From: Escherichia coli
GTDB lineage: Bacteria; Pseudomonadota; Gammaproteobacteria; Enterobacterales; Enterobacteriaceae
Direction: 5' to 3' (one strand)
Length of the DNA stretch: 64,000 nucleotides
Assembly: GCF_965641715.1 (NCBI RefSeq)
Contig: NZ_OZ282453.1
Shown piece by piece: positions 20,901 to 23,751 of the stretch (the stretch's first letter is position 1; every line of letters starts with the position of its first letter). Under the pieces are notes generated by a model. It was not told the origin of the DNA. It saw only the letters and a program-made list of their open reading frames with translations, and did no database searches. The position numbers were made by a program, and so were the translations under genes.

Positions 20901-21737
20901 TTTGGAATCGATGCTGACACCATTAACCCCCCCAGCAATAACGCCGAGGTTGCGAACCCCCACACCTTTCTCGGTGCTGACCAGATTGATTTTGTTCGCA
21001 TACATTCCGCCCAGTTTGGCAACATCTACACTGTAACCGTTACGGGAACCGGTGGCGGATACGGTGCCGGTTACCTGGCCTGCGGCGTTAACATAGTTAT
21101 TACCAGCAACAACGTTCAGCTCATCGGCAGACACTTTGCCGTTAACCACCACGTTACGGGACAGAATTTCTGTCGGGCTGGCGTTATCCAGTTTACCGAG
21201 CGTAATGGTACCGCCGTTCACGGAGTAACCGGCCAGCTTGTCATCCTGGATATCCGGCGTCCCGGTGGTTAAGGTAAGTTTACCTGTATTGATTGAACCG
21301 CCACCGTTTACAGTAATACCATTCGGGTTGGCAATAATCAGATCCGCTTTATCCCCTGCAACTTCCATCATCCCATTAATGGTTGAAGGATTTTTGGAAG
21401 TAACCTCATTCAGGATCACCTTCGCCGACCCGGAGGTCAGATTACTGTTTCCCTGAATATTTCCGGCAAGTGAAGTACTGGATTCATTAGCGCTGTTATT
21501 GAAAACGACACCATTTTTATCAACGTTTAGGTTATCCCAGATATTATGAGATAAACCGCTACCGTTAGGTTTGTTGATGTCAACGACTGGCACACCATTG
21601 GCGTTATATACCGTTCCATTTTTTATGACTAATCCCGCCGCTTGAGAAGCTACAGGAAAAGACAACATCATAAGTATAGCAATAGGGGTTAATGCTTTAC
21701 CCACCGTTGCTTCCTTACTTAAATTTATCATCGCCAC
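17925..21737 (-). CDS. Two-partner secretion exoprotein, TpsA (filamentous haemagglutinin/haemolysin-like beta-helix), 1270 aa
   Basis: Signal peptide; N-terminal TPS domain with ANPNGITVNGG motif; Asn/Gly/Thr-rich beta-helical repeats throughout; no recognisable C-terminal toxin domain. Confidence 0.8.
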   Translation of the reverse strand: MAMINLSKEATVGKALTPIAILMMLSFPVASQAAGLVIKNGTVYNANGVPVVDINKPNGSGLSHNIWDNLNVDKNGVVFNNSANESSTSLAGNIQGNSNLTSGSAKVILNEVTSKNPSTINGMMEVAGDKADLIIANPNGITVNGGGSINTGKLTLTTGTPDIQDDKLAGYSVNGGTITLGKLDNASPTEILSRNVVVNGKVSADELNVVAGNNYVNAAGQVTGTVSATGSRNGYSVDVAKLGGMYANKINLVSTEKGVGVRNLGVIAGGVNGVSIDSKGNLLNSNAQIQSASTINLTTNGTLDNTTGTVTSVGTISLNTNKNTIVNTRAGNISTMGDIYVNSGTIDNTNGKLAAAGMLAVDTNNATLINSGKGSSVGIEAGLVALKTGTLNNSNGQIRGGYVGLESAALNNNNGDIQTTGDIAIISNGNVDNNKGLIRSPTGHIVIGAAGSVNNGSTKTADTGSSDSLGIIADTGVEIGANNINNNGGQIASNGNVSLSSYSTIDDYAGKILSNSKVIIKGSSLRNDTGGISGKQGIEVAVGGSLTNNIGVISSEEGDISLLANSVDNHGGFMMGQNITMESMSGVNNNTALIVASKKLKINARGSIENRDGNNFGNAYGLYFGMPQQTGGMVGKEGIELSGQNIYNNNSRLIAEDGPLTLQAQNTFDNTRALVTSGADASIQVGGTYYNNYATTWSAGNLDIDATTLQNSSSGTMIDNNATGFIASDKNLSLEVVNSLTNYGWISGKGDVDVTVNNGNLYNRNTIAAEKGLDIAALNGIENWKDISAGGDLTMNTNRHVTNNSNSNMVGQNIVINAVNDINNRGNIVSDADLNVTTKGNLYNYLYMVGYGDIALSANSVANNNATIEATGDLIIDSKGNVGNNRGNLHALNGVLSVKGNNLNNDNGEIRGYGDVTLALTGNYDSYKGSLTSETGDVTLTANIVDNAYGLIAGENVSVDAKSTIYNNTALIAANKKLVINAGGNLENRDGNNFLRNNGALFGITDNVGGIVGKEGVTLSAQNVYNNNSSIIAENGPLNLLSKGTLDNTRALLSSGADAIIRAAGTFYNNYATTYSAGNLDVYAASLNNASDGRLEDNTATGVIASDKNLDLSVDSSVTNYGWISGKGDVHFNVLKGTLYNRNAIAADNALTINAQNGVENFKDIVAGTALTIDTQKYVTNNSNSNMLGQTIAINAVNDINNRGNIVGDYSLGVKTTGNIYNYLNMLSYGVAGVSANKVTNSGKDAVLGGFYGLALEANETDNTGTIVGM
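18020..20210. repeat. Internal tandem duplication (~1.1 kb unit, two diverged copies) within tpsA
   Basis: Protein segments NTALIVASKKLKINARGSIENRDGNNF... and NTALIAANKKLVINAGGNLENRDGNNF... are about 70% identical over ~300 aa; antisense ORFs 18139-18378 and 19216-19512 share ...SPLPLIQP ends, giving a ~1134-bp offset. Boundaries approximate. Confidence 0.7.
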
Positions 21738-21999
21738 TAACGTTTTCCTTATTGATGCTATTCATTTTGGACATGCAGATCACTTTTGATGACTCACGGA
21801 ATATCAGCAAAAATGATTGCGGCAAATCCTATCACCTGGCGCAATAAAAAATCACGAAAAATAAGCTGAAATAAGGACTCAAAAAAACAACTAAGAGTTA
21901 TTGTTTTTTCATCGAACGGCGAAGAAACTAACTTACTAAAACACAATAATTTAAAAGTCCCCCATCCTTGCTCCTTGGGTGAAAAAAATCCAATTTAGA

Positions 22000-22050
22000 G
22001 GATGTCTGAAATGATATGTAGTTTTCTGTACAACATCATTTCAGACATCC
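22000..22050. repeat. Perfect 16-bp inverted repeat with 19-bp spacer in AT-rich intergenic DNA upstream of tpsA
   Basis: ggatgtctgaaatgat (22000-22015) and atcatttcagacatcc (22035-22050). Confidence 0.8.
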
Positions 22051-23127
22051 GAATAAAACAACAAAGTTGGTGAGTTACAATTAATTTAAATCTTATTATT
22101 TGATTAACAAAGCATCATCATTACTGCATCTTATTCTCTATATCTTTTACGTCGGGGTAGATTCTTTATGGTCATTACGGGCAGGCGACATTTCATTATA
22201 TTACCATTTGCATTCACGCTTGTAACCCTTAAGAGTTATATAAAAAGGAAAGAGTTCTTGCTCATGGTATTACTGAGATCGGATTAACCATGAGGTTAGC
22301 TATATAGAGAGCTTTGGCTTTGCGACAATTGGCTTAAGCAGCCACATTATGCCTGCTTATCGTTGAAAGGGAGAAAGAAGAGCAAAACGGTTTGGCAAGC
22401 TTTCATTCCCATCTAATAGCAATCACCGCTATACATCATCCCTTAACGTATTCTGGTCTTCATAAAAATGTTATTCTAAATTAAAGATTGTAATGATTTT
22501 AATAATGTTGTTATTATTTTGCAACAAAACAACCTAACACAATGATTATTCGCGATTTTTTATTAGTTAAGAGGAATTGTTTTTACAGATTGCGCTACAA
22601 TTCCGCTCATTTCTCACCACAGGAAAAGCTGAAGTAATCTTAAATGACTGTATTAACCCTTTTCTCCGCTGCCAGCACTCTTAAATATCGTTGTTTTATT
22701 CTTATAAAAACGGCTTTTTTGACATAAAAAGTAATAGGTTCAGCCATTATGCAGAATTTACAACCTGAGAAAATCGCAAAAAACACTCTTATTCAGAATA
22801 AAACTCTGTTTATCATCTTTCGGTAAGCATTAAATTACTATATTACCGTTCAACATTAGTATGAATGAAAATTCAATTGTTATACATGTGATGAATGTCA
22901 TATATTGTGCTCATCGATTGCAGGACATCGCTATTCTTTTAGAGATACAGATATCACGCTGTTACTCTCTAATATAAAGAACACGCAAAGATTAGTTGTG
23001 TTACTGCAGTTGTTATGTCGCATATGGAATGCCCATTGTTACATCTTTAGTAAAAAGCTTTATTCACTTTCAAAATTTTTACTCCATGAAGATGGGCTGT
23101 TTTGCTGCAAGCAATTGAGTTAGTGCA

Positions 23128-23751
23128 ATGAACAAGAACTTACTAACAAGGGTAATTATCATTTCGGATGATCTATATTACCTTCAGGGATTAAGTGCAA
23201 AACTAGGTCACCATTATCGTTTTTTTATTGAGTGTTTTTTTTGTTCTCAAAATGCATGCAATAATGACCTAAGTACACTTAGATTTGACAACCGCTTTAC
23301 CAAAAACGTACTTCTTGTCGCAGTGGATGACGTAAGTATACTTGCAAAACTGCCAGATTTGGCCAGGTTTTTAATGATTGTTTCACTAAGAAAGATGAAA
23401 AACAGAAATATCTTCTTTTCACTTTCAGAGCAAACATTCATTAGCCGATATATAAAATTGAATAAACTCATTACTTTGATTAAAAGTACTGATAAAGACC
23501 AGCAAGTCAGGCAGGTGACTCTGACAAGGTATGAGTGGGATATCTATTACTTATATTTTAAGATAGATAACAAAAGAATATTGCACACCCTGCTAAAAAA
23601 GGATGTCAAGTATATTAGTCACTATAAAATATCAGTTTTTAACAAGTTTGAAATTGCTTGTGATAGTGATGGCTTTTACATTTTCAAGGCACTTATACAG
23701 TTAAGGAGATTTACCGGTTTTAAAAACGTCAGATTGTATCAATTGCATTAA
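23128..23751 (+). CDS. Hypothetical protein (207 aa), possible regulator upstream of fimbrial operon
   Basis: AT-rich gene directly upstream of fimbrial major subunit; no motif I can assign. Confidence 0.35.
   Translation: MNKNLLTRVIIISDDLYYLQGLSAKLGHHYRFFIECFFCSQNACNNDLSTLRFDNRFTKNVLLVAVDDVSILAKLPDLARFLMIVSLRKMKNRNIFFSLSEQTFISRYIKLNKLITLIKSTDKDQQVRQVTLTRYEWDIYYLYFKIDNKRILHTLLKKDVKYISHYKISVFNKFEIACDSDGFYIFKALIQLRRFTGFKNVRLYQLH

Follow-up and report, generated by a model that had tools for sequence, protein, structure and literature searches.

What is a long, perfect inverted repeat doing in a spacer that appears to encode nothing? The stretch at 21738-23127 of the window (the whole 64,000-nucleotide stretch of E. 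coli DNA analyzed here, to which all positions refer unless another sequence is named) spans 1,390 bp between otpA and the ECs1281/loc6 fimbrial operon in E. coli O-island 47 (S-loop 71). An earlier note, made from the letters of the DNA, had described a perfect 16-bp inverted repeat with a 19-bp spacer at 22000-22050 and had offered three readings of it: a site bound by a regulator, a recombinase site for a phase-variable switch, or an RNA hairpin in the 5' leader of tpsA, the gene called otpA here. The coordinates and sequence of the repeat proved to be exact. Its arms, GGATGTCTGAAATGAT (22000-22015) and ATCATTTCAGACATCC (22035-22050), are complementary at 16 of 16 positions and enclose 19 nt. 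We refer to the element as HP1, and we set out below what its surroundings, its variation within E. coli and its conservation in a diverged relative say about the three readings and about others that they suggest.

The spacer and its neighbors in O-island 47

The start of otpA lies at 21737 on the minus strand and that of ECs1281 at 23128 on the plus strand; the two units that flank the spacer are therefore divergent, as had been described. Heading the minus-strand unit, otpA is followed by otpB (ECs1283) and then by acpS, SDR, FabZ-like, ACP, aminomethyltransferase and ketosynthase genes of fatty-acid/polyketide type. On the plus strand, ECs1281 is followed by the loc6 chaperone-usher genes ECs1280-1276, an SDR gene, and genes for the ToxR-like regulator GrvA and an EAL protein. 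OtpAB is a two-partner secretion system of E. coli O157:H7 that has been confirmed experimentally, and GrvA, encoded in the same island, is a virulence regulator. RefSeq annotation and the literature both assign the region to O-island 47/S-loop 71, and the suggestion that the DNA was horizontally acquired is borne out. The spacer is matched in 380 of 5,426 complete E. coli genomes, once in each and with 90-99.7% identity, and the carriers are mostly O157:H7 or O55:H7. A similarity search of plasmids returned only two records, both apparently mis-assigned segments of E. coli chromosomes.

Several sequences carry lesions in the flanking genes. The loc6 usher is frameshifted in O157:H7 TR01 (L001 15457-17974), otpA has an internal stop in deer strain 48 (L015 1-147), and in a metagenome contig (L102 1-3707) otpA is split into ORFs of 417 and 825 aa. 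ECs1281 itself resembles little else: its sequence has no match in Pfam, NCBIfam or PDB, a first scan of a genome collection with it as query gave no match, and among 5.8 billion proteins its homologues form just two distant clusters with 54-56% identity. The AlphaFold model of the protein, with a mean pLDDT of 38.8, is unusable.

Table 1. Positions of the spacer, its flanking genes and the elements discussed in the text
Feature	Positions	Strand	Description
AT-rich gene-free spacer	21738-23127	none	Sakai NC_002695.2 1348686-1350075; 33.6% GC
otpA (tpsA; ECs1282/Z1542)	17925-21737	-	two-partner-secretion exoprotein, 1,270 aa; TPS and haemagglutinin-repeat domains
ECs1281	23128-23751	+	207 aa, 32% GC; orphan leading the loc6 fimbrial unit; presumed regulator
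HP1	22000-22050	-	51-base stem-loop; -28.9 kcal/mol, z = -7.3
HP1 conserved core	22007-22043	-	9-bp arms TGAAATGAT / ATCATTTCA and the 19 nt between them
Flank upstream of HP1 (otpA sense)	22051-22111	-	about 68% identity in alignment with the diverged orthologue; invariant TTTGTTAA
HP2	21775-21820	-	bulged hairpin of 17 pairs, located 38-83 nt before the otpA GTG
Third conserved island	22825-22928	none	back-to-back sigma-70-like hexamer pairs

The description of the spacer as AT-rich and gene-free also stands. Its GC content is 33.6%, that of the 64-kb window 47.7% and that of otpA and the fimbrial genes beside it 49%; no RefSeq feature lies inside it among the genomes listed, and we found no coding signal. 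It holds 18 stop-to-stop frames of at least 35 aa; none of the 10 longest passes the Pfam threshold (the best, at 0.025, is a chance match), and 1-nt indels in other lineages, at 21881, 22778 and 22971, fall within the longest small ORFs. On these two grounds we rejected hidden genes and pseudogenes.

Markedly AT-rich and part of an acquired island, the spacer has the composition of H-NS-type xenogeneic DNA. The Cappable-seq transcription starts listed for EDL933 under eight laboratory conditions include none in the spacer, and the only one listed for otpA is internal to the gene (1436432). Similarly, no sRNA or small gene in the spacer appears in Hfq-CLIP supplements, O-island sRNA reviews or Sakai small-gene tables. 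These absences fit a silent, probably H-NS-repressed locus, although they prove nothing; composition and the absence of listed starts together make H-NS silencing of the spacer plausible. In its size (1.4 kb), its divergent genes, its GC content relative to the roughly 49% around it, its place in O-island 47 and its lack of a listed start, the spacer resembles the silenced, H-NS-type spacers of fimbrial and adhesin loci. That likeness, drawn from composition and listed starts, describes the spacer and leaves the hairpin unexplained.

HP1 and its variation within E. coli

HP1 is far beyond chance and unique in the window. It is the sole perfect inverted repeat there with arms of at least 12 nt and a spacer of at most 60 nt, and in 200 first-order Markov simulations of the window the longest arm was 14 nt, reached once, while 16 nt was never reached. 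When folded in the otpA sense, the 16-bp stem is continued by a G.U and a U-A pair, a 1-nt bulge and a 3-bp inner helix that is closed by an 8-nt apical loop, CAGAAAAC; the element sits about 263 nt from the otpA start codon. Fold energies range from -23 to -29 kcal/mol across the E. coli haplotypes.

Several familiar classes of element were considered and rejected. A repeat element (MITE, IS remnant or REP type) was rejected because HP1 occurs at this locus only, as one copy per genome in 380 genomes, with no flanking direct repeats. A metagenome scan with the inner 10-bp arms returned eight contigs that represent the same locus and known haplotypes, and 48 others with unrelated chance hairpins. 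HP1 is without sequence relation to any curated RNA family; among Rfam 15 families the best match was a microRNA model that scored 31.8 bits against a threshold of 53, a generic hairpin match. An intrinsic terminator was rejected as well, there being no terminator-like site in 21500-23400 and only 6 G:C pairs among the 16 of the stem. On the minus strand a U7 run begins 12 nt past the stem; the plus strand has no U-run. Finally, the 12 nt beside HP1 at 22051-22062 are perfectly complementary to 22690-22701, but a complement of this length or longer arises in 12% of simulations, and we therefore rejected this long-range pairing as chance.

Invertible promoters are common at fimbrial loci, and on this precedent HP1 could be a target for a recombinase or belong to a phase switch that inverts DNA between the divergent units. 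A 20-nt inverted repeat of 90% identity (21843-21862 / 22545-22564) flanks 682 bp that contain HP1, as such a switch would have it. However, comparison of strains uncovered no inversion: all 380 genomes match the query over 80% or more of its length, and each of the 80 matches listed is one collinear piece. Furthermore, the long-range repeats I1-I4 decay without compensation in other lineages (18/20 to 16/20, 22/27 to 17/27, etc.), and no recombinase gene is annotated within about 12 kb on either side. The spacer thus shares with fimS a fimbrial regulatory region that contains inverted repeats, but, unlike fimS, it is not inverted in any of the 380 genomes, its flanking repeats are not conserved and no recombinase gene adjoins it. 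We consider a phase switch extremely improbable and abandon this part of the earlier proposal.

An alignment of 17 E. coli genomes spanning the identity range resolves the HP1 stem into five haplotypes. Two are perfect: GGATGT/ACATCC, and GAATAT/ATATTC, in which perfection is regained and A21999C lengthens the repeat to 17 bp. GGATAT/ACATCC and GGATAT/AAATCC have one mismatch each, and the O157 form is GGACGT/ACATCC. In the source strain and some others the repeat is perfect, whereas in O157:H7 (Sakai, 1349763-1349813; EDL933, CP008957.1 1436048-1436098; TR01), the majority of the 380 carriers, T22003C reduces it to 15 of 16 matching positions.

The way in which these haplotypes differ bears on what the repeat is. 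At two pairs, 22001/22049 and 22004/22046, both sides have changed, from G:C to A:T, in the same lineage that gains the 17th pair; we estimate the chance that four substitutions would yield two complementary pairs among 32 stem positions at about 1e-3. The one-sided changes at 22003, 22004 and 22029, which lie in HP1 and its inner helix, leave G.U when read on the minus strand but C.A or A.C when read on the plus strand. A U.U mismatch in the stem occurs in a single lineage, represented by ZF8-1, EC1515 and a metagenome contig (L018).

The main rival to an RNA reading of this pattern is that HP1 originated by template switching alone. The repeat would then be a functionless mutational by-product of intrastrand template switching at a quasi-palindrome and/or of deamination of unpaired cytosines in extruded hairpin DNA, processes that would have made the repeat perfect and would go on 'correcting' it. 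Template switching is documented to create and repair hairpins, and several features of HP1 agree with it: perfect repeats of 16-17 bp occur in several haplotypes beside imperfect intermediates (A.C, C.A), position 22046 changed on two occasions (C to T, C to A) once its partner had mutated, and variable sites have about the same frequency in the outer stem and the flanks. The comparison with a more distant relative provides evidence on both sides of this question.

A diverged orthologue and a second hairpin

The first cluster of ECs1281 homologues is encoded on contigs from gut metagenomes (L099-L102) that have the architecture of the E. coli locus, in which otpA on one side, and a 207-aa gene and fimbrial operon on the other, diverge from a spacer that is 1,293 nt long and has about 36-37% GC. 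Megablast of the DNA of this locus against the 5,426 complete E. coli genomes gave no match. OtpA is 89% and ECs1281 56% identical between the two, and the spacers are 47% identical in a global alignment. Only three islands of the spacer can be aligned by blastn: the otpA-proximal 170 nt (76%), HP1 with its upstream flank (68%), and 22825-22928 (70%). HP1 falls in one of the three and a second hairpin, HP2, in another.

At the position homologous to HP1, L099 has a hairpin with an identical 9-bp core (UGAAAUGAU/AUCAUUUCA) and, again, an apical loop of 8 nt. Both arms of the core are identical across all E. coli lineages and L099-L102. The inner helix of L099 has 5 bp, GUGUG/CACAC, versus G.U, U-A, bulge, G-C, U-A and A-U in E. 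coli, and it is compensated between the two, from A-U to G-C and from G.U to G-C. L099 is without the outer 7 bp, and the E. coli 5' arm carries five extra nucleotides. In E. coli the helix is near-continuous over about 21 bp (16 + 2 + 3, with the 1-nt bulge) and in L099 it amounts to 14 bp (9 + 5), with a fold energy of -16.3 kcal/mol. A covariance model of HP1 (R1) recovers L099 at 68.6 bits.

The identity of both 9-bp cores and of the 19-bp spacing between E. coli and L099 also speaks for a dyad DNA site: a regulator such as ECs1281, GrvA or a nucleoid protein, as a dimer or tetramer, would occupy the half-sites TGAAATGAT / ATCATTTCA and control otpA and/or the fimbriae. The location, a regulatory spacer beside uncharacterized candidate regulators, is suitable. 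The conserved half-sites and spacing agree with the earlier idea of a regulator-binding site, but complementarity is kept well beyond them, by two-sided changes in the inner helix and the outer arms that a protein site does not need. In addition, arms of 16 bp are far longer than usual half-sites, a centre-to-centre distance of 28 bp is unusual, and HP1 has no Fur match; the single Fur-box match in the spacer (13/19) equals the null expectation, lies away from the hairpin and was rejected. Because compensation extends into the spacer between the arms, a putative regulator site fits less well, and we regard it as quite unlikely. Since pairing is maintained between the conserved cores too, a hairpin is a better reading than a pair of protein half-sites.

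HP2 (Table 1) was found by RNAalifold on the otpA-sense strand, and its structure was thus chosen on the minus strand, which biases the test of its strand. With this bias, 16-17 of its 17 pairs form on the otpA-sense strand in every lineage versus 12-15 on the other, and its energy is -15.3 kcal/mol (z = -2.9) on the minus strand versus -9.4 kcal/mol (z = -0.7) on the plus strand. In L099, where the counts are 16/17 and 12/17, the pairs of HP2 have changed from A-U to G.U twice, from U.G to U-A, from U-A to U.G, from G-C to G.U and from A-U to G-C.

When both hairpins are considered in the E. coli alignment, 99.8% of cells are paired on the minus strand versus 93.4% on the plus strand, and in both hairpins, the inner helix of HP1 included, one-sided changes without exception give G.U on the minus strand but mispair on the plus strand, an asymmetry that stems from about nine substitutions, several of them shared by descent. 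Over 20 sequences that include the diverged orthologue, 98.5% of cells are paired, with four pairs changed on both sides and eight on one side only; this level of pairing exceeds all 500 column shuffles and every slid register, although kinship inflates it and the structure comes in part from the same sequences. HP1 and HP2 both display the covariation and the one-strand G.U pairs of a conserved cis-acting RNA structure. Judged from these alignments, pairing is kept in evolution, and it is kept on the otpA-sense strand. The asymmetry points to RNA transcribed in that sense.

These findings also bear on template switching. With this class of hairpin HP1 shares perfect arms, imperfect intermediates and a lineage-specific extension of the stem; relative to L099, the E. 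coli 5' arm has a 5-nt insertion by which it becomes fully complementary to the 3' flank, the outcome expected of one template-switch event. However, the orthologue has kept the core and inner helix in a spacer that has otherwise diverged to saturation, which is hard to explain without constraint and argues against a purely mutational origin. Moreover, the neighboring HP2, which is not a DNA palindrome and contains G.U pairs, is maintained with the same strand specificity, and one-sided changes that are all G.U-compatible on a single strand are a bias that a process acting on DNA does not predict. A wholly functionless by-product is therefore doubtful in our assessment. As the source of the perfect, E. 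coli-specific outer stem, on the other hand, template-switch mutation may well have been at work.

Beyond this lineage, otpA orthologues with 58-78% identity occur in Kosakonia, Enterobacter, Mixta, Rahnella, Izhakiella, Buttiauxella, Pantoea, an Acinetobacter and others. The DNA upstream of otpA in 15 other enterobacterial and Acinetobacter genomes is AT-rich but shows no similarity to the E. coli spacer, no long inverted repeat and no match to the HP1 covariance model. An HP1-like hairpin is thus not a general feature of this operon family, and HP1 and HP2 belong to the lineage that also has ECs1281. ECs1281 and the HP1 hairpin co-occur in both of the lineages in which HP1 is present.

Two arrangements in other genera are worth recording. 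In Kosakonia sacchari SP1 (L089 3-2091), genes for a loc6-like pilin, chaperone and usher (59-62% identity) are divergent from otpA, with an AT-rich spacer of about 0.9 kb in between and no ECs1281, indicating that the pairing of fimbria and otpA predates the island of E. coli. In a Buttiauxella MAG (L086 913-1740), a gene for a GrvA-like, ToxR-type regulator (28% identity over 289 aa) lies divergent and just upstream of the otpA homologue, a gene order that hints at a functional link between GrvA-type regulators and otpAB.

A predicted 5' leader of otpAB

Retained pairing, its strand asymmetry and the survival of the hairpins lead us to read HP1 and HP2 as elements of the otpA 5' leader. We give about an even chance to the prediction that the two belong to a structured 5' leader RNA of the otpAB operon. 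An RNA hairpin in the tpsA leader is also the proposal of the earlier note that we favor: the compensatory changes and the G.U pairs confined to the tpsA-sense strand support it, and we infer the transcription of the leader itself. According to this model, the HP1 stem-loop would form in RNA transcribed in the otpA direction and, together with HP2 just upstream of the ribosome-binding site, would be part of one 5' untranslated leader, predicted to be at least about 315 nt long. HP1 would act in cis on the mRNA, most likely as a determinant of its processing or stability, and HP2, which adjoins the Shine-Dalgarno sequence, could modulate the initiation of translation. The outer 7 bp that are specific to E. 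coli may be a template-switch addition to an older hairpin of about 14 bp.

Enterobacterial leader hairpins that control the fate of an mRNA include the RNase III-processed stems of rnc and pnp and the 5' stabilizer stem-loop of ompA. RNase III acts on about two helical turns, or about 20 bp or more, of double-stranded RNA. By this analogy the E. coli HP1 is of the size of an RNase III substrate and could have a role in processing or stability. Like these leader stems, HP1 is a long, stable stem-loop whose changes are compensatory and G.U-tolerant on the mRNA-sense strand, and its placement in a 5' UTR is predicted. Unlike theirs, its transcript and cleavage are hypothetical; it lies about 263 nt from the start codon and has only 14 bp in L099.

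We judge HP1 to be real, previously undescribed and of modest importance, a fresh instance of the familiar structured-leader kind. The literature searched on O-island 47, OtpAB, EHEC sRNAs, small genes and transcription start sites, which did not include two OtpAB papers by Choi and Bernstein, contains no description of it. A pair of strand-specific hairpins offers a cheap and concrete handle on how the silent otpAB operon is switched on, and HP1 is a tidy natural case for asking whether selection or template-switch mutation maintains perfect hairpins, a matter under debate. In other respects the element is of an ordinary kind, in a locus that has been little studied, and holds no surprise.

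A more elaborate version of the leader model would have HP1, its upstream flank and HP2 form a hitherto unrecognized riboregulatory leader, or an sRNA plus a leader, that gates the cryptic otpAB and fatty-acid/polyketide-type operon of the island. A dedicated factor such as ECs1281 would bind the leader, or alternative pairing with the Shine-Dalgarno region would serve the same end. We think this version unlikely.

The flank at 22051-22111 could be a promoter or part of the leader, and if it is a promoter it might drive an independent, short otpA-sense RNA that ends at the U-tract after HP1 and acts in trans, or as a checkpoint for premature termination. Conservation of the flank is in keeping with such an sRNA or attenuator, as are weak -35/-10-like hexamers seen in it by eye (8/12, below the scanner threshold). 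U-rich tracts beyond the hairpin point the same way: E. coli has U7 at a distance of 12 nt, and L099 has UGUUUUGU at 6 nt. The terminator scan was empty, however, the stem is AU-rich and the E. coli U-tract is not adjacent to it, and neither the sRNA and small-gene sources cited above nor Rfam, at threshold, contain a corresponding RNA. Taken together, these points make an independent sRNA or attenuator very unlikely.

Candidate promoters occur in the third conserved island. This island has 1-4 variable columns per 50 within E. coli and is about 70% identical to the diverged orthologue. Its sigma-70-like hexamer pairs run from 22865 to 22837 on the minus strand and from 22877 to 22906 on the plus strand and are, as sequence motifs, candidate divergent core promoters. 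Should otpA be transcribed from the minus-strand site, its leader would measure about 1.1 kb. Control by RfaH through an ops element in the leader was rejected, as GGCGGTAGnnTG has no match with up to 2 mismatches in 21738-23127.

Among 50-nt segments of the spacer, variation within E. coli is highest at 21938-21987 (16 variable columns), just downstream of HP1 in the otpA sense. This segment is rich in G (CACCCAAGGAGCAAGGATGGGGG), and the diverged orthologue cannot be aligned to it. The minus strand of 21738-22076, a putative 339-nt leader, contains seven GGA motifs, among them the one in the Shine-Dalgarno sequence AAGGA, against 3.6 expected (P = 0.06). The excess is a weak hint of CsrA-type binding. 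The island adjoins dgcT (ycdT), a CsrA target.
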